A DNA stretch of 64,000 nt from a virus (IMGVR_UViG_3300021400_003144), one strand, 5' to 3'. Numbered from the stretch's first letter, positions 2,887 through 28,254 are shown. Numbers and translations: made by a program. Notes: generated from the letters alone by a model not told the origin.

Positions 2887-3225
2887 GAACCCTTTTATAG
2901 GGATTAACTGATATTAGCTAAAGGTAAGCATTTGAATTTGCTCCTTTTAGCATTGGAACCCTGTTATAGGGATTGAAACATACAGCACTATACATTGCAG
3001 AAATTTTCACAGATAGAACCCTGTTATAGGGATTAAATGCTTCAGATAGATTTGTAGAAGTCTAGAATTGTATAGATAGAACCCTTGTAATAGGGATTGA
3101 GTGTTTATAGACAAGGTAGTACCTTTAGGAATATGTTTAAACCCTGTTATAGGGATTGACTTATGATTGTACAATCAACGTGTAAGTATTAAGTATTTAA
3201 ACTGAACCCTGTTATAGGGATTAGA
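2887..3225 (+). CRISPR. CRISPR mini-array 1 (6 degenerate repeats, 5 spacers)
   Basis: Repeat core (G/A)AACCCT-N5/6-AGGGATT starts at 2887, 2956, 3016, 3079, 3139 and 3204 (period 60-69). Spacers are unique. Lies next to cas10. Confidence 0.9.
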
Positions 3226-3264
3226 TACACCTTTAAATCAAATGGTTTAAAGGTGTAATTTTTT
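3226..3264 (+). terminator. Intrinsic terminator closing array 1
   Basis: TACACCTTTAAA...TTTAAAGGTGTA stem followed by a T tract. Confidence 0.8.
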
Positions 3265-3349: not shown

Positions 3350-5227
3350 ATGGTAGACGAAAAATGTAAAGAGCTTTATATAGCAGGTCTACTCCATGAT
3401 GTAGGTAAGTATATACATAAGACTAATGGCAATAAGGCTTCTCATGAGATATTATCTCAGTTGTTTATTTTAGATAATCCTGAGATTTGTATTGGGGCTG
3501 ATGTTGAGAAAATAGCTAACATTGTAGCCAATCATCATGACAGAGGAAAGTATGATAAAAGCTTTGTAGGAAATTTAAAGATAACTCCTGATAAAGTGGT
3601 GTCTGCTGAACTTTGTAAGAAAGCTTATGATAACTATAAGTTGGACTGCTATAAGAGTGAGATAGACATTATTAAAAAGGCTGATAGCTTATCAGCTTCA
3701 TCAGACAGAGCATCTGAGACTGGAGAGTCAGGAAATGGAACAAGTGCTCCATATGCTCCACTAATATCTCCTATTGGAAAAGTATTCAATAAGAGATTAG
3801 CAGTAAGACATGGTAATTCTTACTGTGTTTACAACTTTAGTGGGGATACTGATACTAAAGAAGTTATCATGGAGCTTGATAAGAATTGTGATGAACATAT
3901 AGAGAGTTCCTTTGAGTCTTTCATGAATGACATAAAGGCTATAAAGAGTCTGAATGACCTTGATGATATTCTGAAAAAGCATTGGTCAACTGTCAATGCC
4001 AATACATGGAGACCTAAGGGAGAATCTTTAGGAAACACAACTACTTCCTTGTATGACCATAGTAAAACTACAGCGGCTTTGGCTGTAGGGGCATATCTAA
4101 ATAAATGTGCTGGTGTGGCTGTGGATGATATGTTTGTTTACAGAGTAGTATACAATGGAAATAACAGAAGTCTTGAGGATATTGTTGATAATCTTTTGAA
4201 TGAGATTGGACTATCTCAGTTACATGTAATAAGTTCTACTGATGATGAGGTTTATGCAATTATACCTTATATAAAGTCATTAGAATTTGTAGAAGGTCTG
4301 AGTAAAGAGAACATAATATCTTTTAAGGATTTTGGAGAGACAATAGACTACTTTGTAGCTAAGCATTGGAAATTTAAGGGTTGCAGAGATTCTTTTAGAG
4401 ATAGACTTGGAGAGTGTCAGTATGGTATAACTAAAGTCTTAGGTAAAGTAGATGCAGGCATTGGAGCTGATACTTATATAGCAGATAGACTTGATAGTAA
4501 GTTTATAGGTGGCTATGTAATAGATGGTTATGACTATATACTTGAACATGTACTAACTGAGAATGACTCCATTAGTAAGCTGAGTACTACCTTTAGAATA
4601 TTTGAAGCATTTAATAGAGAAGTAACTAAACTTCTTGACAACAAGGGTAAAATGGTACTCAAGTCTGAACTTGATAAGACTATTTATTCAGCTGATAACA
4701 TTGAGGAAGTGCATAGGATTGAAGTAGAGATACAGTCAATATTTGAGAAGTACTTCGGAGATGCTACAGGGTTGTACTTTACATACTCTAAGTATGACAG
4801 ATATAGCAATACAGTAGAAATGTTGGACAGAGAATTTAATACTAGAGGTGCTAGTCTGAATATTGAGAAGAAGCTTCAGAATGGAGGTCTGTACACTACA
4901 GTTCTTATAGATACTAAGAGATATAAGATAAATAGTTTAAAGATATATAATGAATATGTTGGGTATCTGAGTAAGTGTGATAAATCCTTCTTGTATAAAG
5001 CAAAGCAGATGTATGATGAGCTGTTTAAGTATAACATTGATAAAGACCCTATACATCTTGTAGCTAAGTCAAGACTGTACTATATGAAGTCAAAGGCAGA
5101 TGGAAATAAGGTAAATGTACTTAATGAGATATATAAGTGTGCATTTGATTCTGCAAAAGGTCAGATTAGTGATAATGCATACATAATATATGAAGCATTA
5201 AAAAATGTGTTAACCAATGTGAAGTAA
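3350..5227 (+). CDS. cas10: Cas10/Csm1-like large subunit, HD nuclease motifs intact, cyclase motif degenerate
   Basis: Has AGLLHDVGK, VANHH, IKKADSLSA and SLYDHSKTTAALA (Csm1 hallmark). SISKLSTTFRIF aligns to the Palm2 SR.ATLSR region. GGDD is absent (probably VLKSELDK). Confidence 0.88.
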   Translation: MVDEKCKELYIAGLLHDVGKYIHKTNGNKASHEILSQLFILDNPEICIGADVEKIANIVANHHDRGKYDKSFVGNLKITPDKVVSAELCKKAYDNYKLDCYKSEIDIIKKADSLSASSDRASETGESGNGTSAPYAPLISPIGKVFNKRLAVRHGNSYCVYNFSGDTDTKEVIMELDKNCDEHIESSFESFMNDIKAIKSLNDLDDILKKHWSTVNANTWRPKGESLGNTTTSLYDHSKTTAALAVGAYLNKCAGVAVDDMFVYRVVYNGNNRSLEDIVDNLLNEIGLSQLHVISSTDDEVYAIIPYIKSLEFVEGLSKENIISFKDFGETIDYFVAKHWKFKGCRDSFRDRLGECQYGITKVLGKVDAGIGADTYIADRLDSKFIGGYVIDGYDYILEHVLTENDSISKLSTTFRIFEAFNREVTKLLDNKGKMVLKSELDKTIYSADNIEEVHRIEVEIQSIFEKYFGDATGLYFTYSKYDRYSNTVEMLDREFNTRGASLNIEKKLQNGGLYTTVLIDTKRYKINSLKIYNEYVGYLSKCDKSFLYKAKQMYDELFKYNIDKDPIHLVAKSRLYYMKSKADGNKVNVLNEIYKCAFDSAKGQISDNAYIIYEALKNVLTNVK

Positions 5228-5236
5228 GGAGTATAC

Positions 5237-5719
5237 ATGGACGATAATTATTTAAAGGAAATCAAGTCTGGATATACAGACAATGGTGTAGCTAAGCTGA
5301 GTCTGATTGATGGATATCCTCAGAAGTTAGCTAAGGAGTTTAATGAAGCAACTCCAATGTTGTCAACAAAGCAATCAAGAAGTATCTTTGATACTGTGAA
5401 TGGACTTGAGGTTAAGCTTCGTAGAAAGTCAGTATCATTTGATGAAGTCAAGATTGAACTTGGACTACTTAAGTCTAGAATAAATGATAAGGTTAATAAG
5501 GGAAGTATCCCTAAGGTATTCTTTGAGTTCTTTGAGGAAAATATTAAAGCCATTAAGAATGAAAAGGATTTACAGGTGTTTAAGATTCATCTTGAGTCAA
5601 TTTGTAACTATCTCAAGGATGATAAGCAGACTGGAAATAACGGAAGCTACAATAAGGGTACAGGCTATAATGGAAATTATAGACCTAGAACAAATGGATA
5701 TAATAACAATAGAAGATGA
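5237..5719 (+). CDS. csm2: Csm2 (Cas11) small subunit
   Basis: STKQSRSIFD and FKIHLESICNY match the Csm2 TxQxRxF and FxxxxExxxxY motifs. Position after cas10. Confidence 0.8.
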   Translation: MDDNYLKEIKSGYTDNGVAKLSLIDGYPQKLAKEFNEATPMLSTKQSRSIFDTVNGLEVKLRRKSVSFDEVKIELGLLKSRINDKVNKGSIPKVFFEFFEENIKAIKNEKDLQVFKIHLESICNYLKDDKQTGNNGSYNKGTGYNGNYRPRTNGYNNNRR

Positions 5720-5736
5720 AAGTGAGGATATAAATT

Positions 5737-6375
5737 ATGATTAAGGAGCAGATTAAGATTACAGGTGTACTTACAACAGAGTCAGGTATACATATTGGTG
5801 GTACTAAGTCAGACTTAGGAATTGGTTCTATGGACAATCCGGTTGTTAGAGATGCTCTTACAAATAGACCTTATATTCCTGGTTCATCCATTAAGGGAAA
5901 GATGAGAAGTATGTTTGAGCTTAGTGGTTTTGCTAAGGGCAAGACATTACCTTGTGGCTGTGGTGATAAGGATTGTATCGTATGCAAGCTCTTTGGTGCT
6001 CATAGAAATACCAAGTCTGAAGCAGGTCAGACAAGAGTAATGTTCAGAGATGCTTATTTATCACCAGAGTTTGAGAATCTTGATAACACTATTGAAGTTA
6101 AGACTGAGACAGCTATTGATAGAAGGACTGGTACAGCTCAGAATGGTTCTCTGAGACAGAGTGAGAGAGTTGCAGCAGGTGTCAATTTCAACTATGAGAT
6201 TAGCATTCTTGTATGCGATGGAGACAATGCTGATGAGCTTAGGGCTATGGTTGAGAATGGTCTTAGAATGATTGAGGCTACAGGTCTTGGTGGTAAGGTA
6301 TCAGCTGGATATGGTAAGGTTAACTTCAATATTGGTGCTGATTCTTATAAGGTAGAAACTAGGAAGTTTAATTAA
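5737..6375 (+). CDS. csm3: Csm3 (Cas7) RAMP backbone RNase
   Basis: GIHIGG, DNPVVRD (catalytic Asp position retained), PYIPGSSIKGKMRS, CIVCKLFG, EVKTETAIDR and GLGGKVSAGYG. Confidence 0.95.
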   Translation: MIKEQIKITGVLTTESGIHIGGTKSDLGIGSMDNPVVRDALTNRPYIPGSSIKGKMRSMFELSGFAKGKTLPCGCGDKDCIVCKLFGAHRNTKSEAGQTRVMFRDAYLSPEFENLDNTIEVKTETAIDRRTGTAQNGSLRQSERVAAGVNFNYEISILVCDGDNADELRAMVENGLRMIEATGLGGKVSAGYGKVNFNIGADSYKVETRKFN

Positions 6376-6387
6376 AGAGGTGTACAG

Positions 6388-7089
6388 GTGTTATATAAAA
6401 TAGAACTTCAACAGAATACGGCTACAATAGGTAATGTTGTAGCCAATACATTATTTGGGGCTTTTCTAACAGCTTATTCAACTATATATACAGTTGATAA
6501 GGACATGATAGATGATATTGTATTATCTGATTTATTTTATAATAACATCTTACCTAAGGGTGTTATTAATAATAAAACAGTGTTCTCAAAGCCTTTTGAA
6601 CATACTCAGATAGAAATGTCAAGAGCTCTTATAGCAAGAGATAATGAATCAACTAATGTTGTAAATAATACTGTTGGTAATATTGATAAGAAATGTTCAT
6701 TCTTTATTAGTACTAAGTTACTTGATAAGAATGACATTGAGGAAATAGTCAAGCTTATGTGTGAGTTTGGTATAGGCAAGTGGAGAAATGTTGGTAAAGG
6801 TCAATTTGAATTTAAGAGCATAGAGGAATATGTACCAAAGACAGATGTAAAGAGATTTGTATGTTTAAGTAGTTTTATTCCGGACTGTGATATAAACGAT
6901 TATGACATCAGTTCTTTAGGTTATACAATTAGAGATGCCTATGCTACCAATGGTATTAAACAGAAGCAGACTATAATGCTTCTGACAGGAACAAGTTTCA
7001 GAACATTCAGAGAAGTTGTTGGAAAGCATGTATATGATGAGAATAGCAATACTTATATACATGGTAAATCAATAGTGATTGGAGTTTAA
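6388..7089 (+). CDS. csm4: Csm4 (Cas5 group) RAMP, shortened
   Basis: NTLFGAF, G-rich loop GIGKWRNVGKGQF and CLSSFIP. Confidence 0.8.
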   Translation: MLYKIELQQNTATIGNVVANTLFGAFLTAYSTIYTVDKDMIDDIVLSDLFYNNILPKGVINNKTVFSKPFEHTQIEMSRALIARDNESTNVVNNTVGNIDKKCSFFISTKLLDKNDIEEIVKLMCEFGIGKWRNVGKGQFEFKSIEEYVPKTDVKRFVCLSSFIPDCDINDYDISSLGYTIRDAYATNGIKQKQTIMLLTGTSFRTFREVVGKHVYDENSNTYIHGKSIVIGV

Positions 7090-7717
7090 GATGGTTTATA
7101 GATTAGAAAAACTTATTTCAAGTGGAGAAAAAGCAACTAAGGATTTAGGTATTCTTAGCAATATGATATCTAATGCAGAGAATGTGCATGGAATCCTTGG
7201 AGAGCTTTTTAACTTAGAGAATGAGCAGAACTGGAGAGCTAATCATCATATTTTATACAGAAGAGAGACAAATAAGACTTGTGAATTTATTGTTAGATCT
7301 GATGTAGAAATTGATATGAATAAGGCTAAAGAGCTTGGTTTCAGTGTAAAGACAGAAAAAGAAGTTCCAATGACTGGTGTTGTAAAAATCAGACTTGCAG
7401 CGGCTACCTTTAGAACAGAGAAAGGCTCATCAAGTCGTAATAGAAAAGCTATTAAGCTTCAGGATGATAGAATTAACTGGATTAAGTATAAGTTATCCAG
7501 TAAGGGTGAATGTGAAGTTTATGATGTAAATGAAGTAGGCAAGGTAATGAATTTCATGTCTCATAAGGATACAGCTAATGGGCAGGTAATGCTTGAGGGT
7601 TATGATTATGAGGTTAGTCTTAAGGTCAAGGATTCAGAAGGGTTTAAAAAGCTTGTAGAGAATGGTGTAGGACCCAATAAAAACTATGGGTTTGGAATGA
7701 TAGTCTGTAGTGAATAA
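7079..7717 (+). CDS. cas6: Cas6 family crRNA-processing endoribonuclease, Cas6e/Cse3-like
   Basis: C-terminal GVGPNKNYGFGM glycine loop, ILYR segment and INWIKYK resemble Cas6e. Last gene before array 2. Confidence 0.75.
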   Translation: MEFKMVYRLEKLISSGEKATKDLGILSNMISNAENVHGILGELFNLENEQNWRANHHILYRRETNKTCEFIVRSDVEIDMNKAKELGFSVKTEKEVPMTGVVKIRLAAATFRTEKGSSSRNRKAIKLQDDRINWIKYKLSSKGECEVYDVNEVGKVMNFMSHKDTANGQVMLEGYDYEVSLKVKDSEGFKKLVENGVGPNKNYGFGMIVCSE

Positions 7718-7763: not shown

Positions 7764-8147
7764 AAACCCTTATAATGGGGATTGTATATTGAAAGCATAT
7801 AAGTTTATGAATGCTCTTCCAATTAGAACCCTTATACAGGGATTAAATGTTGATGAACTCTTCCATTTCGTTGAAGGGTTTGAGAGAACCCTTGTGACAT
7901 GGATTGATACATTTGATTCTCCTTTATTCTCTATGTAGAGAACCCTTGTGACAGGGATTGATACATTTGGTAGTGACTTTAATTCTTTAAGCAATGAATA
8001 TCTGAACCCTTGTAATAGGGATTGAATTACTTTGATTTTAGCAATAAACTCAATACTTAGATCTAGAACCCTTTAATAGGGATTGCATTAAAAGCTTTTC
8101 TGCTAGTTACATTACAATATAGGGAGAACCCTTTTATAGGGATTGTA
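7764..8147 (+). CRISPR. CRISPR mini-array 2 (7 repeats, 6 spacers)
   Basis: Repeat starts 7764, 7826, 7886, 7940, 8004, 8066 and 8126 (period 54-64). Confidence 0.9.
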
Positions 8148-8168
8148 TTAAGCATAGGAGGTGTATAT

Positions 8169-8876
8169 TTGAATAGAATTTTAAAAATAATAGTCATAAC
8201 TATCTTTAGTTTTATTGGAATATCAGTAATGAGCATAATTCTTTTAATAGGTGGAATACAGCTATTTGTACTCGGATACAACGGAAGTATTCCTGATGTT
8301 GAAGAGAGACCAAAGATTATTGCTCATGAACTAGGGAAGAAATACGGAGATAAGTTCGAAGTACTTAGTTGTGAGCAAGTAAATCTTGGTAGTTACAAGG
8401 TTGCTAAGCACGCAAATATTGGTGAGGCTAAGTGTTTGTCAGATGGAATTAAGTTTAATTATCAAGTAGATTTGAGATGTAGAAAAGATTTATGTGATAA
8501 TTACATTGGATTATTGAATGAACCAGTAATAATGGAGGATATAAAAGAGTTATTAAATGAGAATAACTTAGAAGAATATTTTTATAACTTAGAATTAGAT
8601 ATGAATTATTCATATGAAGCAAAGACATTAGCTGAGTATAAAGAAGATGAAAACATAGTAGTAAAAGTTGATACAGAGGTATATGATTCTGAGGATGCAG
8701 AAAACTATTATAGACTTTTTCATTTATTAAAGGACAATGGGTATGTATTTGATGCTAAGTTAAGAGACAGTGATAATAAAACATATCTAAGTGGTAGACC
8801 TTCAGATACAGATAAAGAAGCATATATAACTGAAGAAAGATTCAGGAATAAAATGGAAGATATAGGAATATACTAA
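8169..8876 (+). CDS. Membrane-anchored hypothetical protein located between arrays 2 and 3
   Basis: N-terminal TM, KKYGDKFEV motif. AGGAGG RBS lies about 10 nt after the last repeat. Confidence 0.75.
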   Translation: MNRILKIIVITIFSFIGISVMSIILLIGGIQLFVLGYNGSIPDVEERPKIIAHELGKKYGDKFEVLSCEQVNLGSYKVAKHANIGEAKCLSDGIKFNYQVDLRCRKDLCDNYIGLLNEPVIMEDIKELLNENNLEEYFYNLELDMNYSYEAKTLAEYKEDENIVVKVDTEVYDSEDAENYYRLFHLLKDNGYVFDAKLRDSDNKTYLSGRPSDTDKEAYITEERFRNKMEDIGIY

Positions 8877-8902
8877 TGGTGATTTAGTATGTTCTGTGAT
8901 AA

Positions 8903-9049
8903 GAACCCTTTTATAGGGATTGATACTTGTAAATTTTATTCAACATACACATTTTAGAAATATTCGTGCTGAACCCTTTTATAGGGATTGTATAATCATA
9001 ACTTCAGAGTTTTCAAGGGCACAGTTTGAACCCTTTTATAGGGATTGGT
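8903..9049 (+). CRISPR. CRISPR mini-array 3 (3 repeats, 2 spacers)
   Basis: GAACCCTTTTATAGGGATTG at 8903, 8971 and 9028. Confidence 0.88.
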
Positions 9050-9056
9050 GAGCTAT

Positions 9057-9193: not shown

Positions 9194-11431
9194 ATGAGAG
9201 TACTTTTATTACTTAGAGGAGCTCCTGGGTGTGGAAAATCAACATTTATTGATTATAATGGTCTTAGACCTTATGCATTATCTGCTGATGAAATTAGGTT
9301 ACTGTGTCAATCTCCTCAGCAAACACCTGATGGTTCTGTTCAGATTGGGGTAAATCATGAGGAAAAGACCTGGCGTATCTTATTTGATTTGCTTGAAGCT
9401 CGTATGGAGAGTGGAGAGTTTACTATTATAGATGCTACGAACTCTAAAACATCTGAAATGAACAGATATAAAGAGATGGCAGATACATACAGATATAGAA
9501 TGTACTGTGTAGATTTTACAGACTTGCCTATTGAAGAGTGTAAAAGACGTAATGCAGGCAGAGAGCCTCTTAAGAGAGTTCCTGATGAAGCAATAGACAA
9601 GATGTATGCTAGGTTTAAGACTCAGAAGATACCTAGTGGTATCAAGGTAATTAAGCCTAGTGAACTTAGTACAATCTGGATGAAGCCTATTGACTTCTCT
9701 AAGTATAATAAGATAGTTCATATTGGAGATATACATGGATGCTATACAGCTTTAAAGGAATACTTTGATAAGAATGATATAGCTGATGAAAATACCTTTT
9801 ATATCTTTACTGGAGATTATATAGACAGAGGTATTGAGAATGTGGAAGTTATGAATTTCCTCTTTGAAGCAGCTAAGAGAAAGAATGTATTTCTTCTTGA
9901 GGGAAATCATGACAGATCTATTCAGATTTATGGTCATGGTGGTGCTTCAAGAAACAAAGAGTTCGAGTTTGGAACTAGGAAGCAGTTCGAGGATGCTCAT
10001 ATAGATACCAAGGAGCTTAGAAATCTTTATAGAAGATTTGGACAGTGTGCTTATTATACATATGATGATAAGACAGTGCTGGTATGCCATGGTGGAGTAG
10101 CTACTGTTCCTGATAACATAACTAAGTTAGCTACATGTCAGTTAATTAATGGTGTAGGCAAGTTTAGTGATGCAGATACTGTTGAAGATACTTGGATGAA
10201 CACTACTGAGAATAATATGTATCAGATACATGGACATAGAAATACTAAAATGAGTCCTATACAGTCAAGAGATAGAGTGTTTAATCTTGATGGTGCTGTA
10301 GAACATGGTGGTGAGCTTAGAATAGTAGAGCTTACTCATGATGGGTTTAAGTGTATAGGTATTAAGAATACAGTCTTTGCAGAAGATGCAAGCTTAGAGA
10401 ATATGTCTGAGTCAAGTGAGGTTGGAGCAAATGATACTGTAGCTGACTTGATTCTTAAGCTGAGAGCTGATAAAAAGAACATTGAAGAAAAGAACTTTGG
10501 ACATATAAGTTCCTTTAACTTTACAAGAGATGCCTTTATAAACAAAGATAATTGGAATAGCAGAACTGTAAAAGCTAGAGGCTTATATATTGATGTAGAT
10601 AAGCAGAAGATTGCAGCTAGGTCATTTGATAAGTTCTTTAATGTAAATGAAATGCCATTTACTAAGTTTGATATGCTTAAGAACAAGCTTAAATTCCCAG
10701 TGAAAGCCTATGTAAAAGAAAATGGTTTCCTAGGTATTGTAGCATATGATGAATATGGTGACTATGAGGATAACCTGATTGTAACAAGTAAGTCAAGCAT
10801 AACTGGAGATTTTTCAGGCTGGTTAAGAGATATGCTGAACAGAAAGACAGAGTATGATACTCGTAAGAAGATGGCTGAGTTCTGTAAGGCTAATGATTGT
10901 AGCTTGGTATTTGAATGTGTAGACATGGGTAATGACCCTCATATCATTGAATATCCTGAGTCTGAGCTGTATCTGCTTGCTTGTGTAAATAATGAGATTG
11001 AGTTCAAGCAGATGAGCTATAATAAGCTTGAGAAGTTAGGAAGAGAGCTTGGACTTAAGGTTAAGACATTGGCTTATACTCTTAATAATTGGAGTGAGTT
11101 CTATGATTGGTATACAGAGGTCAATGCTGATGACTATAAGTTTAATGATAGAATCATTGAGGGTTTTGTAATTGAAGATGCTTCAGGATTTATGACAAAG
11201 ATTAAGCTTAGCTACTATCAGTTCTGGAAACACATGAGAGCTGTAGCTAGAGAAACATTACGCTATGGTTATATAAGAAAAACTGGTGCATTGACAGATG
11301 AAACATCTAATATGTTCTATGGATTCTGTAGAAATCTATATAATGAGGCAGGAAGTCCTGTTATGAGAGACCTTATACCTAGAGATATAGTCTATCTCAG
11401 AAAGAGATTCTATGATAGTTTAAAGAAGTAA
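9194..11431 (+). CDS. Polynucleotide kinase / metallophosphatase / RNA ligase fusion (Pnkp-like RNA repair)
   Basis: P-loop GAPGCGKS and DATN. Phosphoesterase motifs GDIHG, GDYIDRG, GNHD, HGG and HGH. Ligase motifs KENGFLG, EGFV and KIK. Confidence 0.9.
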   Translation: MRVLLLLRGAPGCGKSTFIDYNGLRPYALSADEIRLLCQSPQQTPDGSVQIGVNHEEKTWRILFDLLEARMESGEFTIIDATNSKTSEMNRYKEMADTYRYRMYCVDFTDLPIEECKRRNAGREPLKRVPDEAIDKMYARFKTQKIPSGIKVIKPSELSTIWMKPIDFSKYNKIVHIGDIHGCYTALKEYFDKNDIADENTFYIFTGDYIDRGIENVEVMNFLFEAAKRKNVFLLEGNHDRSIQIYGHGGASRNKEFEFGTRKQFEDAHIDTKELRNLYRRFGQCAYYTYDDKTVLVCHGGVATVPDNITKLATCQLINGVGKFSDADTVEDTWMNTTENNMYQIHGHRNTKMSPIQSRDRVFNLDGAVEHGGELRIVELTHDGFKCIGIKNTVFAEDASLENMSESSEVGANDTVADLILKLRADKKNIEEKNFGHISSFNFTRDAFINKDNWNSRTVKARGLYIDVDKQKIAARSFDKFFNVNEMPFTKFDMLKNKLKFPVKAYVKENGFLGIVAYDEYGDYEDNLIVTSKSSITGDFSGWLRDMLNRKTEYDTRKKMAEFCKANDCSLVFECVDMGNDPHIIEYPESELYLLACVNNEIEFKQMSYNKLEKLGRELGLKVKTLAYTLNNWSEFYDWYTEVNADDYKFNDRIIEGFVIEDASGFMTKIKLSYYQFWKHMRAVARETLRYGYIRKTGALTDETSNMFYGFCRNLYNEAGSPVMRDLIPRDIVYLRKRFYDSLKK

Positions 11432-16420: not shown

Positions 16421-18718
16421 ATGAGCAAGACATTAGACTTTAGTAAAGATAAGGAGCTTATAAGACAGGATAGTACTGGTGAATATATAGAAGTAACATT
16501 AAATGTTAAGAAAGCTTTTGGAAAAGGTCGGTTATATAGTGATGGTAGCATGCTGATAGAAGAAGGACACTATAAAGCATGTGTACCTAGTGCAAATGAA
16601 GTATTCAAAAAGGCATACAGAAGTGACTTAGGTTTAAATGCAGATTCTGATGGTGATATTAAAAATATAAGAGTTGGAAGTGCATCAGGAGCAGCTAATA
16701 TCTTAGTGGGTGGTTTAAGTTCAGGTTATATTGTTTGGAAAGACAAGAAAGATAGGATTGTAGACTTTTATAGAGATACACATAATGAAAAAAGTGAAAC
16801 ACCTAAGAAAAGAGTAATTGCAGAGGTATTAGACCAAAAACCTCGTAGAAAGAATATAGGAACAGAAGGAAAGCCTTTAGAGACACTTGTAAATCCTGAT
16901 GTAAAGCAGATATTAGGTGATAAAGTTCATCTTGAAGAAGGTGATGAACTTACATGGTATAGAGATGCAAATATAAATATAATATGGCATACAGATGGCT
17001 CCTGTGATTTATTTGAGAGGGAGCACATAGGGATTTGTGGGGCTGTCTTTAGGATAGTGTATGGACACTGGAGAGGTAAGGGTGAGCATGGTTCTGGAAT
17101 GGAGCCTCAGCATTGGATATATAAAGGTATCAAAGTTTCTGATATTTTAAATGTTTATCCTAATTTTTGGAAAGCATGCGAAAATAGCCTAGATTATGGA
17201 GATAACACAGAAGCTGAGGATAACAGGAGTTATGAAATGGGCAGAACAAGCAATAAAGAAGCAGTTGATAAAGAAGGTGTAACTAAAGAAGCTGTTAGGC
17301 AACCTAAGTATTACTATGAGTCAACTAGGCTAAAATATAGAACAACAAATTCTGATGTACAATGCAGTGCTGTTAGAGATATTAATAAGATAAAAAGTCA
17401 ACTGTTTTATGAAGGTAGCAATAGCAATCAAGACACACCTTGGAAAATAGCAGAAGATATGATAGACCTACTTCCAGAAAGTGTATGGAATCCTCATACA
17501 AAGTTCTTAGACATCTATTGTAAGAGTGGTATATTCTTAGAAGTTATAAAGAATACACTTAAAGATAAATGTTATGAACAGTATAGAGAAATGGGATTAG
17601 CAACAGATACAGAGATAAACAAGTATATATTTGAGAATCAATTATATGGATTATGTTGGTCAAAAAGAAATTATGAATATACAGCTGAGAGTTTATTCAT
17701 GGTTAGAAGTCCTATGAATAGCTATAATATAAAGAAGTTAAGTGAAGTACTTAAGGCAGAAGAAAATACAGAAATATTAAAAGATGAACATGACGGAAAT
17801 ACGGATGAATACATAAAGAGAGATTATGTAACATTGGGATTGATTAAGAAATACAGGAAAAAGAATGAATATACAGGAGAAGATGAAATGACAATAGATG
17901 TAGTAGTAGGAAATCCGCCATATAACAAAGATATATACATTGACTTTGTAGAGAATGGGCATAAGATTGCAAGACAATACTGCTGTTTCATAACACCTGC
18001 CAAGTGGCAAGCCAAAGGTGGAGAAAAGAACGAGTCATTTCGTAAGAATATAGTTCCTCACATGAGTAAGATCGTTTATTATCCTAACACACCAGATGTA
18101 TTCTTTATAGGGGAAGCTGCTGGAATATCAGCATACAGAATAGATAAAGAAATATATGAAAAGAAAAAATTAGTTGTTAAAAGTAGCATACCAATTCTTA
18201 GGGGTAGCTGTGAGTTAACACATGATATGCCATTAGATATATGTGGGTGGAATATTATTAACAAAGTAAAAGGAAAAAGGATGTCTCTCAAAAATTATAA
18301 CACTGATAAGAAGTATAAAGTTTGGGTTAATAATCTTGTTGGACTTAGTGGTGGAGGCGGAGATTGGCACACATGTCTGTTTTCCAGAGACGGAAAGACT
18401 AATTTTTTAGGGAAGGTATCTTTATCAACATGTCTAGAAGAAGAAAAGAAAATGACTTTTAATCAGAAATGCTGTTTTTCATCAGACACTAAGATAGCAT
18501 GTGAAGCATTTAAGGCATATATATATACAAGGCTAGTTAGATTCTTACTTTATATAGGAAGGTGTGGTAACTCTGTAACAAATGATGAGACATGGCGTTT
18601 CGTCCCCGATCCAGGTGCATTTGACCACATCTTCACCGACCAAGAGTTATACACTAAATATAAATTGACTCAAGAAGAAATCAATGTAATTGAGTCAGTT
18701 ATAAAGGAGCGTAAGTAA
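16421..18718 (+). CDS. Eco57I-like N6-adenine DNA methyltransferase with N-terminal DUF4357-like domain
   Basis: Motif I FLDIYCKSG, motif IV VVGNPPYN, ITPAKW and C-terminal WRFVPDP...FTDxELY. N-terminal SASGAA..GGLSSGYIVWKD resembles DUF4357. Confidence 0.82.
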   Translation: MSKTLDFSKDKELIRQDSTGEYIEVTLNVKKAFGKGRLYSDGSMLIEEGHYKACVPSANEVFKKAYRSDLGLNADSDGDIKNIRVGSASGAANILVGGLSSGYIVWKDKKDRIVDFYRDTHNEKSETPKKRVIAEVLDQKPRRKNIGTEGKPLETLVNPDVKQILGDKVHLEEGDELTWYRDANINIIWHTDGSCDLFEREHIGICGAVFRIVYGHWRGKGEHGSGMEPQHWIYKGIKVSDILNVYPNFWKACENSLDYGDNTEAEDNRSYEMGRTSNKEAVDKEGVTKEAVRQPKYYYESTRLKYRTTNSDVQCSAVRDINKIKSQLFYEGSNSNQDTPWKIAEDMIDLLPESVWNPHTKFLDIYCKSGIFLEVIKNTLKDKCYEQYREMGLATDTEINKYIFENQLYGLCWSKRNYEYTAESLFMVRSPMNSYNIKKLSEVLKAEENTEILKDEHDGNTDEYIKRDYVTLGLIKKYRKKNEYTGEDEMTIDVVVGNPPYNKDIYIDFVENGHKIARQYCCFITPAKWQAKGGEKNESFRKNIVPHMSKIVYYPNTPDVFFIGEAAGISAYRIDKEIYEKKKLVVKSSIPILRGSCELTHDMPLDICGWNIINKVKGKRMSLKNYNTDKKYKVWVNNLVGLSGGGGDWHTCLFSRDGKTNFLGKVSLSTCLEEEKKMTFNQKCCFSSDTKIACEAFKAYIYTRLVRFLLYIGRCGNSVTNDETWRFVPDPGAFDHIFTDQELYTKYKLTQEEINVIESVIKERK

Positions 18719-18756
18719 TATGTATTAATAATTAATTTATACATAGAATAAAAAGA

Positions 18757-18838
18757 GTACCCCTTATAATGGGGATTGAATATATTTTTTATACAGCTCT
18801 TCATCTGTGAAAATAGAACCCTCGTTGGGGATTGAATT
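18757..18838 (+). CRISPR. CRISPR mini-array 4 (2 repeats, 1 spacer)
   Basis: GTACCCCTTATAATGGGGATTGAA at 18757 and GAACCCTCGTTGGGGATTGAA at 18816, separated by a 35-nt spacer. Confidence 0.85.
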
Positions 18839-18880
18839 TATTATAGGTAATAACATTAAGTTTGGGAGGAAAGTTTAAGT

Positions 18881-19327
18881 TTGAGTCAAAATAGCATAGT
18901 GAGATTAAGTAAAGACAATATAAATGAGCTTCTTGATTTTTGTAAAGGAAAATATCCATTAACAAAAGAAGTTGCTCATAATATATGTATAGGAACACAT
19001 CCTGTTAATCCTTGTACTCAAGTTTATGGTGTATTTTATAATGAAAATGGAAAAAGTGAGCTTGTAGCAATAATGACTGCAACATATAGCATTGTATTTC
19101 CGCACGAAGATGGAACTAGAATAGTACATATTAGTGGGGCATATACAAAAGATAATTTCAGAAATAGGGGATATGCATCTGATTTGTTAAAGGCTATCGA
19201 AAGAGATGCAAGGGATTATTTTCATGCAGATTATATGTGTTGTGATTCAATAGCAAATGAACTATATAAGAAAAATGGATTTAAAGAACCAGATGTAGAG
19301 ACAAGATTGTGGAAACAATTATCTTAA
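18881..19327 (+). CDS. GNAT family acetyltransferase
   Basis: YTKDNFRNRGYAS acetyl-CoA motif and LYKKNGF. Confidence 0.85.
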   Translation: MSQNSIVRLSKDNINELLDFCKGKYPLTKEVAHNICIGTHPVNPCTQVYGVFYNENGKSELVAIMTATYSIVFPHEDGTRIVHISGAYTKDNFRNRGYASDLLKAIERDARDYFHADYMCCDSIANELYKKNGFKEPDVETRLWKQLS

Positions 19328-19402
19328 CTTAAAATATAGCATTGAACAGGGTTTAATCAGATAAACTACTGAGAAAGATAAAGAAGCATGATGTAAAAAC
19401 AA

Positions 19403-20086
19403 GTGTTTAAATGGAGGCTAGATAAAATGGATAATAGTGATAGGATTAAGCAGTTAGAGAGAATAGGAGTATCACCTGACAATACAACTAACTACACTGA
19501 TGGTATAGTTAACCCATATAGAAGTGTAGCATTAGCAATGATAGAGCGTGGTGAAGCAGTTCCAAATGACTTAGTAGAGCAGATAAATTACTTTGATGGC
19601 TGTAAGGTAAATACACAGGCTGAAGTTCAGGAGGATAATGTTTCAAGTGAGCTTGTAGAACAGGTAGATAACTTTGATAGTGAAAGTGATATACAGGCTA
19701 AAGTTCATGAGAACAGAGAACTTACCATTGGTTTAAATTTAATGCCAGTACTAATTATGCTTATGCTAATAACTGTACTTGGATGGTCTAGAAATACACT
19801 TAAGGAAAATACTCCGTATAATAGAATAACGGAGTTTGTATCAAGATATAACTTAAGTATACCAGAGGATAAGATTACAGAGACTATTGAAAGTATTGAT
19901 AGTAAGTTTAAAGATAACAAAATAGCTGTTGTAGAATTAATAGATGCCAATGGAAATATTAATACTTATGCACTAGATGGTACATATGTATATAGAGGAG
20001 CTGTACAATCTGAAAAATTCACTGGTATATTTAAAGTAAAAGATGATGGTTCATATGAGACAGTAGAGAGACAGGTAGAAAATTAA
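19403..20086 (+). CDS. Membrane-anchored hypothetical protein with internal duplication
   Basis: LVEQxxxFD..QAxVxE occurs twice. Central TM. Confidence 0.65.
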   Translation: MFKWRLDKMDNSDRIKQLERIGVSPDNTTNYTDGIVNPYRSVALAMIERGEAVPNDLVEQINYFDGCKVNTQAEVQEDNVSSELVEQVDNFDSESDIQAKVHENRELTIGLNLMPVLIMLMLITVLGWSRNTLKENTPYNRITEFVSRYNLSIPEDKITETIESIDSKFKDNKIAVVELIDANGNINTYALDGTYVYRGAVQSEKFTGIFKVKDDGSYETVERQVEN

Positions 20087-20134
20087 GAGTCAGCAAGTGC
20101 TAGACAATAAAAGCATGACAATAAAAGGCTGGGC

Positions 20135-21484
20135 TTGAATATGAGTATTATTAATTTTGAAAATAGGACAAGGTGGATACGTGATTATAACATAGCTAAG
20201 ACTTGTACGCCTATCAAAATAGCAAGAGATATGGTAAGTTTAATTGATGAAAAGTATTTCAATCCAGATTCAAAGTTTTTAGACATATATTGTAAGTCTG
20301 GAACAATACTTGAAGCCATAAAAGATAGATTAATGGATTCTAAAAGTATGATTGAAGCTTTTCCAAGTCAAAGAGATAGATATTATCATGTATTAGAACA
20401 TCAGATATATGGATTAGTATGGGAAGATGTAGGCATTAATTGTGAAGAAATGTCTAATATAAATGTATTTGGTACATATGTAAATAGTAACATAAAGATG
20501 TTTAAAATAGCTTCAAAGAATAAAAAAGACGCATATAAGATATTGGATAATATAACATTTTTTAAGGATGAGATACAGAAGATTTTTGGAGAAAAGGATA
20601 TGAAGTTTAACATAGTAGTTGGAAATCCACCATATAACAATGATGCATATCTTGACTTTGTTAAAGCAGGTTATCAACTTTCAACTCAGTATAGTACATT
20701 TATAACTCCTGCTAAATGGCAGGCTAAGGAGGGGTACAAGAATGAGCAGTTCAGAGAGACCATAGTTCCTCATATGAGCAAGATAGTTTATTATCCAGAT
20801 TGCGTTGATGTATTTGGAATATCAGAATTAGGTGGAATTTCTTATTACACAATTGATAAAAATAATATACACGATACTAAAGATATAATAAATAAATGCG
20901 AACTCCAACCTTTACTAAATAGCAGTATGAACAGGGAAATAAATAGTACCCTTTGGAATAGTGCACAAAGCATAATAGAAAAAATAAAAAGCAGTGATGA
21001 TTATAAATTATATGTATTACAGGACATAAAACAAAATAGAAAAACTTGTACAATAAACATAAATAAGCAAATTCCTACAGAGCGTAGTCATATATGGGAT
21101 TGGAATAATTCATGTATAGACCCAAAGTATGTAGGTCATGGTGGTTGCTTACTAAATAAAAATGATGGTAGTACACCATTACTTGGCAGAGCAAAATTTT
21201 TAAGGCATGCTGAAAATGGCTCAGGTACTTCAATAAATATATTTACATCAGATAGTGAACTTGAATGTAGGTCATTTACATCATGGGTTTACAGTAAGTT
21301 TATAAGATTTTTATTAATAATAGCATTATGCAGTAACTCAGTAATGAATGATATTACGTGGCGTTTTGTACCAGACCCTGGTAAATTTGACCACATATTT
21401 ACAGATAAAGAACTTTATGAAAAATACAATCTGACAGAAGATGAAATCAATATCATTGAGTCAATAATTAAGGAGCGTAAGTAA
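20135..21484 (+). CDS. Eco57I-like N6-adenine DNA methyltransferase, paralog of 16421-18718
   Basis: FLDIYCKSG, VVGNPPYN, ITPAKWQAK, IVPHMSKIVYYP and WRFVPDPGKFDHIFTD...IKERK. Confidence 0.85.
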   Translation: MNMSIINFENRTRWIRDYNIAKTCTPIKIARDMVSLIDEKYFNPDSKFLDIYCKSGTILEAIKDRLMDSKSMIEAFPSQRDRYYHVLEHQIYGLVWEDVGINCEEMSNINVFGTYVNSNIKMFKIASKNKKDAYKILDNITFFKDEIQKIFGEKDMKFNIVVGNPPYNNDAYLDFVKAGYQLSTQYSTFITPAKWQAKEGYKNEQFRETIVPHMSKIVYYPDCVDVFGISELGGISYYTIDKNNIHDTKDIINKCELQPLLNSSMNREINSTLWNSAQSIIEKIKSSDDYKLYVLQDIKQNRKTCTININKQIPTERSHIWDWNNSCIDPKYVGHGGCLLNKNDGSTPLLGRAKFLRHAENGSGTSINIFTSDSELECRSFTSWVYSKFIRFLLIIALCSNSVMNDITWRFVPDPGKFDHIFTDKELYEKYNLTEDEINIIESIIKERK

Positions 21485-22249
21485 ATGATATCACAATCAG
21501 TTATACTTGAAGAAATTGATAATGGGTGCTATGGTTGTTATGCTAAAGGCACTGATGGAAATAAGATTAAGAACAATGAAGGTGTTAAAAACCTATTAAT
21601 GAATGAGATAAAGACTCTAGAAGATTTAGAGTCTTTAAATAATATAAATGAATATGAAGTAGATAAGGCATTCTTAGACAAAATGAAGTATATCAAAGAG
21701 CATAAGAATGAAACTGATAATCTGATATATACAGGTGGGTTGGACTTCTTCAAAGGTTTAAAGAAAGCACTTGAAGATGGAGTTGCTGGTGACTTAGCAG
21801 ATTTGAAAGAGTGGCAGGCACTTAAAGAACAAACAGAGGCTGATATTAATGAAAAACTTAGCAAGGCTGATGCTAATGAAGCTGATGAAGAGATTGAGAA
21901 TCTTAGGAAGGAACTTGCTGATGCTCAGACTGAAATTAAGAAAATTGAAGATAAATTTAATGATGAACGTGACAACTTCATGGAGCACTATGTAGTTCCT
22001 GAGACTCAAGATACTACAGATGAATTACCTGCAAGTGTAGCTGAGGGTTTATGTTCTGATGATATTTACATTAAGAAAACAGCTAAGGCTATTGTTATTT
22101 TAGGGGTAAATAATATGTCTAGAGCATTTAGAGCTGATGATGGATATACTAATGTAAAGAAAAGACAAGATGAGAAAGCTTATAACACAATGTTTAAGTT
22201 AATGACACGAAAGAGATTTTCAGAGAAATATAATATATTCTTTATTTAA
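21485..22249 (+). CDS. Hypothetical coiled-coil protein
   Basis: Abuts the MTase stop codon. Acidic helical segment. Confidence 0.65.
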   Translation: MISQSVILEEIDNGCYGCYAKGTDGNKIKNNEGVKNLLMNEIKTLEDLESLNNINEYEVDKAFLDKMKYIKEHKNETDNLIYTGGLDFFKGLKKALEDGVAGDLADLKEWQALKEQTEADINEKLSKADANEADEEIENLRKELADAQTEIKKIEDKFNDERDNFMEHYVVPETQDTTDELPASVAEGLCSDDIYIKKTAKAIVILGVNNMSRAFRADDGYTNVKKRQDEKAYNTMFKLMTRKRFSEKYNIFFI

Positions 22250-22267
22250 TAATTAGGATGGGCAAAG

Positions 22268-23494
22268 TTGATTATGGATAACAACATTGATTATGAGAGT
22301 GAACTTGTTGACAAACTTATTGATGCAGTTTTCTTTGATGAGAATAAGACAAATACATCTGATAAGAATGATAAAGTATCTGAAGCAGAACACTCAGATA
22401 ATTCTGATAAAGCAAAAGAAGCTGATAAAGCAAAAGAAGCTGATAAAGCAAAAGAAGCTGATAAAGTAAAAGAGGCTGAGCATTCAGATAAATCAGATGA
22501 AGCAAGCAAGGCTGAAGAAACAAATGCATCTGACAAGGCTAAAGAAGCTGTTATAGCTGATGAAGTAAGACAGTTAACAGATGAGCAAACAGAACAAATA
22601 ATAAATGCTCTTGCAGATAAGATAGCTAATGGAGATAGAGCTGATATTCTAAAGCAGATAGCTAAGAAAGTGAATGAGATAAACCTTGAAAATCAGTGGG
22701 AATATACTCCTAATGAAAGTACAGGTGAGTTTAATACAAAAGATTTATATGAAGATTCTACTATAACAGCTGCTAGAGACATATTAAATAAATCTCATAG
22801 ACTCCTTATATTAGGAAGTACAGGTACTGGAAAGACAGAGTTAGCTTATCTGTTAGCTCATAAGTTTACTGGTGAAGCTGTTGCTAGTGGAGATATTAAG
22901 CTGTCAAAAGTATGTGTTATAAATGCTAGAGATGGTAAGAGCATATGGGTAGATGATGTTAACACTGAGAGATATGTAGGTGAACTAAATAGATTTAATG
23001 AGTATATAAAGAAAAATAATGAAACAGCAAGTGATGAGGCTGAGACTTGTAAATATGTGCTCATATGCAATGAAATACAGGCAAGTGATGCAGGGTATTT
23101 GTTAGGAAGTCTTTGGGAAGATGCAAATAACTCTGAAAAGAAGCTTAATAAACTTGAGGATAACCTTTATATAATCTTTACTGCTTGTACTGACCAGGAT
23201 TTTGGTATAGATGACCAGATTAAACAAAGAATAAACAGTGTTGATGTTGGTTATATAAGTAGTAAGTATCAAGATAAGCATAAAAAGATAGTTGAAGCTT
23301 ATAAAGATAAATGTAGTAACATTGAAGAAATACTTAATAACATTGAATATATAAATGATAAAGAAGAGTATTCAATTATAACTATGAGAAAGTTTATGGG
23401 TTTATTAAATGGTGAGGGTATAGAGTTCAGTGATTATATAAAAGAAACCTATAAAGATGAGGTTAGTAAAATAAAAATTAAGCAAGCAGGGTAG
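22268..23494 (+). CDS. McrB-like AAA+ NTPase with degenerate motifs
   Basis: LLILGSTGTGKT Walker A, YVLICNEIQ (cf. IIDEIN), NLYIIFTACTDQ (cf. NLYIIGTMNTAD) and IDDQIKQR. Confidence 0.7.
   Translation: MIMDNNIDYESELVDKLIDAVFFDENKTNTSDKNDKVSEAEHSDNSDKAKEADKAKEADKAKEADKVKEAEHSDKSDEASKAEETNASDKAKEAVIADEVRQLTDEQTEQIINALADKIANGDRADILKQIAKKVNEINLENQWEYTPNESTGEFNTKDLYEDSTITAARDILNKSHRLLILGSTGTGKTELAYLLAHKFTGEAVASGDIKLSKVCVINARDGKSIWVDDVNTERYVGELNRFNEYIKKNNETASDEAETCKYVLICNEIQASDAGYLLGSLWEDANNSEKKLNKLEDNLYIIFTACTDQDFGIDDQIKQRINSVDVGYISSKYQDKHKKIVEAYKDKCSNIEEILNNIEYINDKEEYSIITMRKFMGLLNGEGIEFSDYIKETYKDEVSKIKIKQAG
22404..22475 (+). repeat. 18-bp tandem repeat x4 (DKAKEA) in McrB-like linker
   Basis: CTGATAAAGCAAAAGAAG units; the fourth copy is diverged. 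Confidence 0.9.
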
Positions 23495-23503
23495 GTAAAG
23501 TTT

Positions 23504-24592
23504 ATGGGTCATGTTATAAGTGATGATACAGTTGTTGAAATGATAAGTTACCTATCTGGATTAAAGAAGAGCGATGTAAAGAGTGGCTCAAATCTTAAAG
23601 AATTGTTGAAAAAGACTATAACTGATTTAGCTAGAAAGTTATATTTGAGAAATGAGCTGTATCTTAAAAAAGCAGACATAAAGTATGATAGTGTAGAACA
23701 TATATTAAATAAGAACGGAATCTTTAGATTTAAGAGTAATGCAATAATATATAAGACTCTTAAAGAGATAGGTGGAACAGTATATTTTGATGATACTAAT
23801 GATAAAAGCAGCTCTTCTGAGGTGAATAAATCAGATGATAGCAGTAGTGAAGCAGACAAATCTAAAGAGTTTAAAGATGCTAATAACAGAAGAGTTATAG
23901 CTACAATAGCTGATAATCTTACTGAATCTGATTGGGATGTAACCTTTAGAGCTGGTTCTAAAGATAGATTGAGTTTATTGAGACTATGCAGGATGTATCA
24001 TAGGCAAGAACTGATATCAGATGTAAAGACAAAAAATCATGCAGAAGCAGTTAAGGTTGCATGGGAAAGAGAATGTGACTTATTCGAGGAAGTTATTAGA
24101 AAGCATACAGTTGATAAATTTAAGGGTAATGATATAAATGTTAGTGATACTAATAAAATAGTAAGTATTAACAGTAAAGAAAAACCATATGCTCTTAGTC
24201 TTGAGACAGATATAATTGTAAAGAGTCCTAATAAACTGATAATTATAGACTGTAAGGTTTATAAGAACATAAAGTCATGGTCACATGGTAAGCCTAAGTA
24301 CAGGTCTAATGGCAATAGATTCCAAGTCAATAGCTATATAGGAAGTGCATTACAGAAAGAAGAATATAAAAGAGACTTAGCTGAAGGCATTTTAGTTCAT
24401 TTAGTACCTACTGATGCTGATGAAGATACAATGAAGATGCATCAGGCTAACTTAACAATAGAAGATGAAAGACCTATAGAGTTATGGGTTATACAGGACA
24501 AAGGTTTAAATAGTATTTTTAAGGAGTATGATGAACTGCTAAGAACAAAGTTAGAAGCAGAGCAGGATGAAGATAAGGCTGAGATAAGCTAA
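23504..24592 (+). CDS. McrC-like PD-(D/E)XK nuclease subunit
   Basis: LFEEVIR, LETDIIV, IIIDCKVY and FQVNSY. Directly follows the McrB-like gene. Confidence 0.72.
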   Translation: MGHVISDDTVVEMISYLSGLKKSDVKSGSNLKELLKKTITDLARKLYLRNELYLKKADIKYDSVEHILNKNGIFRFKSNAIIYKTLKEIGGTVYFDDTNDKSSSSEVNKSDDSSSEADKSKEFKDANNRRVIATIADNLTESDWDVTFRAGSKDRLSLLRLCRMYHRQELISDVKTKNHAEAVKVAWERECDLFEEVIRKHTVDKFKGNDINVSDTNKIVSINSKEKPYALSLETDIIVKSPNKLIIIDCKVYKNIKSWSHGKPKYRSNGNRFQVNSYIGSALQKEEYKRDLAEGILVHLVPTDADEDTMKMHQANLTIEDERPIELWVIQDKGLNSIFKEYDELLRTKLEAEQDEDKAEIS

Positions 24593-27916: not shown

Positions 27917-28254
27917 AGTGAACCCTTGCAATAGGGATTGAATCTGTACCATACATTTCATTTACTTGCTCTATAGAGTGAACCCTTGCAATAGGGATTG
28001 AATTTTATAATAATGCTCTATGCATTCATTATAATTTAGTGAACCCTTACAATAGGGATTGAATTTATCACCGTTATCGTCGCTGTCGTAATCCTTGGAG
28101 TGAACCCTTGTAATAGGGATTGAATTGTTAGAAAACAAATTATTGACTGTTAATTATTAAAAGTGAACCCTTGTAAATAGGGATTGGATTTATTTTCTAA
28201 GTTTTTAAATATGCTATTAGGTCTATAAGCGAATCCTTGTGATAGGGATTGAAT
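27917..28254 (+). CRISPR. CRISPR array 5 (6 repeats, 5 spacers), best conserved
   Basis: AGTGAACCCTTGCAATAGGGATTGAAT (27 nt) at 27917 and 27977, with variants at 28038, 28099, 28162 and 28228. Spacers are 33-38 nt. Degeneracy increases toward the 3' end. Confidence 0.95.

Follow-up and report, generated by a model that had tools for sequence, protein, structure and literature searches.

A single-spacer CRISPR mini-array between two methylase genes of a giant rumen element and its possible role in the exclusion of rival elements

We analyzed a stretch of 64,000 nucleotides (nt), hereafter the window, of IMGVR_UViG_3300021400_003144, a 282,865-bp metagenomic contig that we consider to be a giant mobile element of the rumen (a jumbo phage or similar). 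All genes of the window are encoded on the plus strand. At the locus described here, two DNA methyltransferase genes, termed methylase 1 and methylase 2, enclose a CRISPR mini-array that contains a single spacer. Methylase 1 (positions 16421-18718) is an Eco57I-like N6-adenine DNA methyltransferase of 765 amino acids (aa) (PF07669, E = 1.3e-16; MTase_II in PADLOC), and its N-terminal half has nearly no orthologues. Methylase 2 (20135-21484; 449 aa; PF07669, E = 7.6e-11) is a paralogue of methylase 1, with 41% identity over 95% of methylase 2 (row P0128). The mini-array (18755-18837) is located inside the operon, since a GNAT acetyltransferase gene (18881-19327; PF13508 and PF00583) begins 44 nt past it, and no plus-strand terminator was found between the methylase 1 stop and the mini-array. 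Considering this tight position between genes and the lack of a terminator after methylase 1, the guide is most likely excised from a polycistronic mRNA.

Repeat 1 of the mini-array (18755-18781) comprises a CCCC/GGGG stem, a loop of 7 nt, and an ATTGAAT tail; it measures 27 nt once its weakly conserved 5' flank is included, and its fourth stem pair is C-G, a compensatory variant of the usual T-A. Repeat 2 (18816-18837) is a short-loop terminal variant (CCCT-CGTT-GGGG) that ends in the same tail, so that a 4-bp stem and an ATTGAAT tail, as is typical of the repeat family, are present in both. The spacer between them was counted as 34 nt (18782-18815), and identity counts refer to the 35-mer 18781-18815. 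The repeats have the same orientation as the genes of the window, from which it follows that the CRISPR RNA (crRNA) would be complementary to methylase mRNA, that is, antisense to it, as an RNA-guided type III effector requires.

An earlier note on this DNA had read the reverse complement of 18781-18815 as IFTDEELYKKY and had compared it with IFTDQELYTKY in methylase 1 (18628-18662) and IFTDKELYEKY in methylase 2 (21394-21428). We obtained the same sequence and translation and, codon by codon, the same counts, namely, 25/35 identities in methylase 1 (7 of the 10 mismatches being synonymous) and 27/35 in methylase 2 (6 of 8). The distance of 39 nt that the note gave between the methylase 1 stop and the array holds for the hairpin core of repeat 1, which begins at 18758, the stop ending at 18718. 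It had also considered that the 35-mer might be an inverted remnant; the similarity to methylase genes ends at both repeat boundaries, and the sequence is thus a repeat-bounded insert of spacer size and not a piece of a longer inverted duplication. We also considered an intramolecular sense-antisense duplex as the main function of this region and rejected it, as a fold of 18610-18850 gave a contact of just 7 bp between motif and spacer (z = -1.96).

When both strands of the window were scanned with the spacer, the two methylase sites ranked first and second, and the next best match was 23. In 300 shuffles of the 35-mer, the best match across the window was mostly 22 or 23; it was at least 25 in 17 shuffles, 26 once, and never 27. 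A search with the 449-aa methylase 2 retrieved 795 relatives, the best ~120 of which were used for motif counts. Exact IFTDEELYKKY was present in 20 of these ~120 homologues and forms part of the most conserved C-terminal block of the family, which reads roughly FDH-IFTDxELYxKY-NLTxEEINIIESVI. The presence of the exact motif in these homologues indicates that the spacer derives from a gene of the methylase family, and, judged by its sequence, it is an antisense fragment of such a gene.

In each resident gene, the two residue changes affect those two motif positions that vary naturally. IFTDQELYTKY, as encoded by methylase 1, was unique among the best ~120 homologues, which is the sole hint of escape. 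The preponderance of synonymous differences, which the earlier note had linked, in one of its two options, to an escape of the resident alleles from the guide, did not prove informative, as homologues with the conserved motif all show such differences. Even foreign genes for the same peptide have 4 to 9 of 35 positions unlike the spacer, and the resident genes have 8 and 10. This excess of synonymous differences is the ordinary mark of purifying selection on a conserved motif and is not by itself evidence of escape. Tandem pairs of paralogues of this family, with motif sites ~830 to 960 nt apart, were also observed on other large gut and rumen contigs (L016, L024, L028, and L030); paired methylases are therefore a habit of the family and nothing special to this element.

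Related sites were sought in IMG/VR, a metagenome collection, species genomes, and sampled Logan/ENA contigs. The exact 33-nt spacer was absent from IMG/VR, and its 22-nt core was absent from the metagenome collection. Degenerate motif patterns of 30 and 33 nt retrieved 1 locus from IMG/VR, 26 from the metagenome collection, and 3 from species genomes, the best matches being 27 to 31/35. Further family genes were obtained as DNA from look-ups of identical-motif homologues, the two sequences closest to methylase 2 (P0040 and P0041) not being among them. Across all family genes compared as DNA, the match to the spacer ranged from 26/35 to 31/35. The highest value was reached by a methylase that is present in many samples on contigs measuring up to 446 kb (L002-L005), by a related methylase on a 106-kb contig (L038), these contigs being from other gut samples, and by genes on a 2.4-kb metagenome contig (L009) and on a 2.2-kb contig (L041) binned to a metagenome-assembled genome of a rumen Erysipelotrichaceae. 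In GenBank phages, a megablast search with window positions 1-25000 gave no match, and a tblastn search with the methylase C-terminus gave three weak records only.

Counting G:U as a pair, the guide pairs at 32/34 positions with L009, 31/34 with L002, 28/34 with methylase 2, and 25/34 with methylase 1. There are hence 6 true mismatches with methylase 2 (+1, +13, +16, +21, +31, and +34) and 9 with methylase 1, where the longest paired run is 7. The mismatch tolerance of type III systems to which the earlier note had appealed is documented: in III-A systems, each 10-nt segment may contain several mismatches, and pairing over ~25 nt can be enough (bioRxiv 10.1101/2023.09.03.556089). Given this tolerance, the foreign genes that match at 31/35 are credible targets, the methylase 2 mRNA is a borderline one, and the methylase 1 mRNA is probably not a target.

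The repeat family (GAACCCT-loop-AGGGATTGAAT) is represented by 29 copies at eight loci of the window and 16 copies just upstream, always on the plus strand. These ~45 repeats, at nine loci in all, give ~35 mutually different spacers of about 30 to 46 nt. Besides the studied unit, the window loci are a 6-repeat array upstream of cas10 (2887-3226), a 7-repeat array directly after cas6e (7764-8148), a 3-repeat array (8903-9050), another 6-repeat array (27920-28254), two two-repeat mini-arrays (29327-29412 and 31141-31261, the latter with the layout of the studied unit), and a solitary repeat (31782-31805). The studied unit has the makeup of a CRISPR unit, a unique insert of 34 nt between two repeats that recur elsewhere with other spacers, and, with such repeats and a cas operon present, it is, as the earlier note had held, a true unit of repeats and spacer that belongs to a type III-like system borne by the same element.

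The repeats are unusually heterogeneous, and no Rfam family matches them. Of 36 repeats sampled, some of them from the relative L034, 34 have the 4-bp stem directly before the ATTG-type tail, and the fourth pair of the stem alternates among T-A, T-G, and C-G. The maintenance of the stem and the presence of a Cas6e-like gene in the operon suggest that the repeats are compatible with a cognate Cas6. Their design is like that of CasE substrates, in which the stem is immediately followed by a tail of 7 to 8 nt. Many type III crRNAs have a 5' tag of the AUUGAAAG type, and the repeat tail resembles this tag.

The reverse complement of 3 of the 35 spacers has a ribosome-binding site followed by ATG, as opposed to none of the 35 in the forward sense; the background rate of this combination was 4.7% in sense-strand 40-mers and 0.35% in antisense 40-mers. 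The mean AT skew of the spacers was -0.08, compared with +0.12 for coding strands. As a set, the spacers appear antisense to coding strands of the phage-like kind. The number of open frames that they contain did not differ between strands, and their bias in purine content was not significant. Spacers antisense to a ribosome-binding site and ATG are found at 7907-7939 and 2907-2955 of the window and at ~4025-4062 of L007 (e.g. AAGGAGAATCAAATG); as guides, they would span translation initiation regions.

The cas operon begins with a Cas10-like large subunit of 625 aa (3350-5227), which matches the Pfam HD domain and, below the cut-off, TIGR02578 (Csm1). It is followed by the small subunit Csm2 (Cas11) (5237-5719; PF03750, E = 4.9e-11, and TIGR01870, above the Pfam and NCBIfam cut-offs), the backbone ribonuclease Csm3 (Cas7) (5737-6375; TIGR02582, E = 1.3e-53, 182 bits against a cut-off of 90), a Csm4 (Cas5)-like subunit (6388-7089; TIGR01903, E = 1.7e-12, below the cut-off), and a Cas6e/CasE-like repeat endoribonuclease (7079-7717; PF08798, E = 7.8e-15, and TIGR01907). 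The HD residues of the Cas10-like protein are invariant across 27 homologues, and the translation of Csm3 retains the context of the catalytic Asp (GSMDNPV). A profile search of the Protein Data Bank with the Cas10-like protein matched exclusively Cas10/Csm1 chains. Neither this protein nor its family consensus contains a GGDD-like cyclase motif, and a profile alignment with Cas10 from 6xn3, itself weak, shows S.D.C/ELDK in place of GGDD. Among the 40 window open reading frames (ORFs) scanned against Pfam, there was no CARF, Csm5, Csm6, Cas1, or Cas2.

The operon thus contains the type III-A set of Cas10, Csm2, Csm3, and Csm4 and lacks an active GGDD Palm with a cyclic-oligoadenylate partner, Csm5, and the usual Cas6. 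Consequently, the effector is type III-like but not canonical III-A, and we describe the operon as an element-encoded, apparently signalling-dead type III-A-like system and leave its subtype unassigned. Relatives of this Cas10 are located on contigs of up to 430 kb, and none was found in IMG/VR. In the relative L034 (2246-3349, 8934-9194), cas6e is immediately followed by a gene for a type I-E-type Cas2, and there is a single array of ~22 repeats; L034 also encodes a separate GGDEF-domain protein of 367 aa two genes upstream of a cas10 without the cyclase motif. L034 is from the same sample series as the studied element, and the two Cas10 proteins are 51% identical. One spacer is common (31/32) to the upstream 16-repeat array of the element (L007 4087-4118, ~2.5 kb before the window start) and to L034 (9982-10013); the repeat loops flanking it differ, and the shared spacer is more conserved than the surrounding repeats.

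The short distance between guide and resident homologue was observed a second time. The spacer at 31164-31200, in the mini-array 31141-31261, is complementary at 29/37 positions to 31335-31371, 135 nt downstream, with 14 consecutive matches, and the best match in 300 shuffles was 27. Both mini-arrays begin with a normal repeat and close with one that has a short loop (CCCT-NGTT-GGGG; 31240-31261 in the second). The site 31335-31371 follows a strong terminator and shares positions with the -35 box in the promoter of a gene at 31424-31756; since it lies upstream of the promoter start and past the terminator, a regulation guided by RNA is unlikely at this site. Only 2 of ~36 spacers, compared with the 64-kb window, resembled own sequence of the element above chance, and both sites are less than 200 nt from the array concerned.

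The earlier note had offered two functions for the studied mini-array, the silencing of the methylase of a closely related competitor or the tuning of the element's own methylases. An action on other elements fits better, as foreign genes match the guide at up to 31/35 and resident ones at 25 to 27/35, and as the encoded motif is a common family variant that occurs in neither resident gene; a closely related competitor was not identified. We therefore favor, with a confidence that does not exceed an even chance, the reading that the mini-array serves inter-element exclusion by attacking the methylase messages of rival elements. Besides the better fit of foreign genes, with mismatch loads inside the documented type III tolerance, this preference is based on the intact repeats and cas operon, on the lack of a GGDD motif and of CARF, Cas1, and Cas2 among the ORFs scanned, on the antisense lean of the spacer set, and on the precedent of the viruses SPV1 and SPV2 described below.

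In this reading of exclusion, the mini-array would be transcribed in an operon with the order methylase 1, array, GNAT gene, and methylase 2. The Cas6e-like nuclease would cleave the 3' base of each hairpin, leaving, as judged from CasE and from the AUUGAAAG-type tags of type III systems, a 5' tag of the AUUGAAU type, and the guide would be loaded into a complex of Cas10, Csm2, Csm3, and Csm4. The guide, which originates from a methylase gene of the family of its neighbors and is complementary to the mRNA of the conserved C-terminal motif, could then recognize the methylase transcripts of elements that infect the same cell and encode a member of this widespread gut and rumen family. Cleavage of the rival mRNA would fall to Csm3 and an attack on the transcribed DNA to the HD nuclease of Cas10; a cyclic-oligoadenylate alarm would not be raised. 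The rival would thereby be deprived of its DNA protection or of its genome, and the host cell of the carrier would be spared. The near-cognate paralogues of the carrier, with 9 and 6 true mismatches, are presumed to stay below the threshold of the effector. Since the guide is within ~120 nt of a mismatched allele, recombination could hardly separate it from the spared copy.

Several observations weigh against this proposal. The perfect target anticipated in the earlier note was found in none of IMG/VR, the metagenome collection, the species genomes, and the sampled Logan/ENA contigs, and the ~50 family genes examined as DNA contained no perfect protospacer, their matches being at most 31/35. 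All target-bearing loci, the best-match contigs included, have nothing but the methylase in common with the window (tblastx), and hence there is no sister competitor among them; the plausible reach of the guide is thus the family across many large gut and rumen elements and no particular sister strain. The methylase 2 mRNA has just three true mismatches from +2 to +26, and published III-A systems might act on it; with a pairing of 28/34, the sparing of self is an assumption. In addition, the spacer may be old, given how much the repeats vary and that no genes for adaptation were seen in the window. Finally, the window does not confirm the element as a phage; the ORFs scanned included neither capsid nor terminase genes, nor any other phage hallmark.

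Among the alternatives, we consider it possible, if unlikely, that the unit is a scar. The spacer would have been captured from the element's own methylase or that of an immediate ancestor, autoimmunity would then have selected many resident substitutions, and the unit would now be neutral or nearly so. Such a history would account for the 120-nt proximity without selection for linkage, and it is in agreement with the second mini-array of the same layout (31141-31261), which is also partly complementary (29/37) to own sequence 135 nt away, as well as with the methylase 1 motif, which has no equal among the best ~120 homologues. Levy et al. reportedly found in 2015 that regions adjacent to arrays are hot spots of spacer capture by type I-E Cas1-Cas2, and the relative L034 bears a type I-E-type Cas2 beside cas6e. 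Furthermore, the tolerance of type III systems would require many mismatches for escape. However, several foreign genes (31/35) are closer to the spacer than the resident ones (25/35 and 27/35), the resident residue differences fall on the two positions of the motif that vary naturally, and no adaptation genes were seen in the window. The intactness of both repeats and of the whole cas operon also argues against decay.

We are more doubtful that the crRNA guides the cleavage by Csm3 of the element's own methylase mRNAs, mainly that of methylase 2, to limit or time their expression, as a type III counterpart of CreA or tracr-L. This would be in line with the pairing of 28/34 with the methylase 2 mRNA, which lies inside the reported III-A tolerance, and with the presence of the guide and both targets in one operon; a self-hit would be non-lethal if the effector is cyclase-dead. 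The two repeats, the second being divergent, and the partly complementary spacer are like those of regulatory mini-arrays (bioRxiv 10.1101/2023.03.03.530964), and 31141-31371 would be a second case. A regulator should, however, match its own target best, whereas here foreign genes match better, and the invariant HD nuclease would be switched on at the element's own DNA. For mini-arrays of type III, Shmakov et al. (bioRxiv 10.1101/2023.03.03.530964) detected no targets and considered these arrays degraded, and the site of the second case, upstream of the promoter start and behind the terminator, is apparently untranscribed.

A bolder and, in our view, improbable version of exclusion is a cassette in which the mini-array is linked to the mismatched methylase allele, which cuts the rival and spares the self, and which works like a homing or allelic-drive element of natural origin guided by RNA. 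In a cell infected by both elements, the guide would recognize the rival methylase transcript, the HD nuclease would break the transcribed rival locus, and recombinational repair from the carrier locus would transfer array and resistant allele jointly to the rival genome. If true, this would account for the second mini-array ~135 nt from a near-cognate site and for the targeting of their own neighborhood by SPV arrays.

That there is no functional guide at all, and that a chance resemblance or an inverted methylase fragment was left between two regulatory hairpins, is hardly credible: the repeats match no Rfam family, are unusually heterogeneous, and the fold of the local RNA is just slightly better than that of shuffles (z = -1.96), but against this stand the shuffle test and the top-two window ranking of the methylase sites, the exact 11-residue family motif, the similarity that stops exactly at the repeats around an insert of family-typical spacer length, the ~45 repeats and 35 unrelated spacers beside a cas operon with Cas6e, and the stem kept in 34 of 36 sampled repeats.

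Other genes of the window deserve mention. A 235-aa gene without family match (8169-8876) is situated between two repeats of identical variant (8126-8925), one at the end of an array and the other at the start of the next, and resembles an oversized spacer. Just downstream of the cas operon and its arrays, a fusion protein of 745 aa (9194-11431) combines a polynucleotide kinase (AAA_33), a metallophosphatase, and a T4-type RNA ligase 1, and is an RNA-repair enzyme of the Pnkp/Rnl kind. Right after methylase 2, which has a weak mad2 match, the region 21485-24592 encodes a protein of 254 aa, a 408-aa P-loop nucleoside triphosphatase (nSTAND3; weak IetA and mad8 matches), and a 362-aa protein with a weak match to NERD nucleases. 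Together with methylase 2, these three genes may constitute a methylation-linked defense or exclusion island. The window is also rich in secreted or surface-type domains (BspA-like LRR, CAP, choline-binding, and SH3b).

We compared the unit and its effector with known systems. Stern et al. are said to have described in 2010 CRISPR autoimmunity, in which self-targeting spacers are escaped by mutation of the target. The studied unit is similar in that a resident gene homologous to the spacer no longer matches it. It differs in that the resident genes are paralogues at 25 to 27/35, with no traceable copy that was once perfect, and in that the cas genes and repeats are intact. Regulatory mini-arrays, namely, CreA of CreTA, scaRNA/tracr-L, and those of type I-F (Shmakov et al., bioRxiv 10.1101/2023.03.03.530964), also have two repeats, one of them divergent, and a spacer partly complementary to a neighboring gene. 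However, the known examples belong to DNA-binding systems of types I, II, and V that act on promoters, whereas the studied site is inside a coding region, and their complementarity is to a resident gene, whereas the best complementarity of the studied spacer is to foreign genes.

With type III-A, the studied system shares the HD Cas10, Csm2, a Csm3 with the catalytic Asp, Csm4, and, as predicted, RNA-guided recognition of transcripts. Reduced type III variants with an inactive cyclase are known as III-C as well as III-G and III-H (Makarova et al. 2025, PMC12669027). The loss of the Palm catalytic motif and the lack of CARF/SAVED partners and adaptation genes are features in common with III-G and III-H (PMC12669027). 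Unlike both type III-A and the reduced variants, the studied system has a Cas10 of just 625 aa, no recognized Csm5, and a processing nuclease of the Cas6e (type I-E) class. In contrast to the reductive signalling-dead variants (PMC12669027), it keeps an apparently active Csm3 together with this type I-E style Cas6. In such a compact cyclase-dead effector with a Cas6e-type signal, the mismatch threshold would be measurable on the natural series of 25, 27, and 31/35 plus the perfect 35/35.

The closest likeness is to the mini-arrays of the portogloboviruses SPV1 and SPV2, whose spacers target sister viruses near the arrays, the orthologous loci of the carrier being mutated in a way that rules out self-targeting (Medvedeva et al. 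2019, PMC6858448). The earlier note had not recognized any arrangement of this kind; since virus mini-arrays that target regions near themselves have been reported in that study, the claim was incorrect. The authors called the proximity of array and target unexplained (PMC6858448). In both SPV1/SPV2 and the studied element, intergenic arrays with one or two spacers correspond, fully or in part, to homologous loci of others, the carrier's own loci are mismatched, and the sites are near the arrays. The differences concern the machinery, the match, and the host. The SPV arrays have leaders and host repeats and depend on host Cas (types I and III of Sulfolobales), whereas the studied element has its own effector and Cas6 and a leaderless array in an operon. 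The SPV spacers match a sister virus at 100%, whereas the best match found for the studied spacer was 31/35. The SPV are archaeal viruses, whereas the studied element, of ~283 kb, has a bacterial (rumen) host. To our knowledge, no bacterial, effector-carrying, operon-embedded version of this layout is known. As the guide lies beside a near-cognate own site twice here, as in SPV1 and SPV2, the proximity becomes approachable in terms of linkage selection, local capture, or homing. If the favored reading of exclusion is true, giant rumen and gut elements disarm rivals with their own alarm-free type III system and operon-embedded single guides, and the attack is aimed at the most conserved stretch of a widespread family of anti-restriction methylases. 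The warfare by virus-borne mini-arrays, documented for archaeal viruses that borrow host Cas, would then extend to bacterial elements that carry a whole effector.

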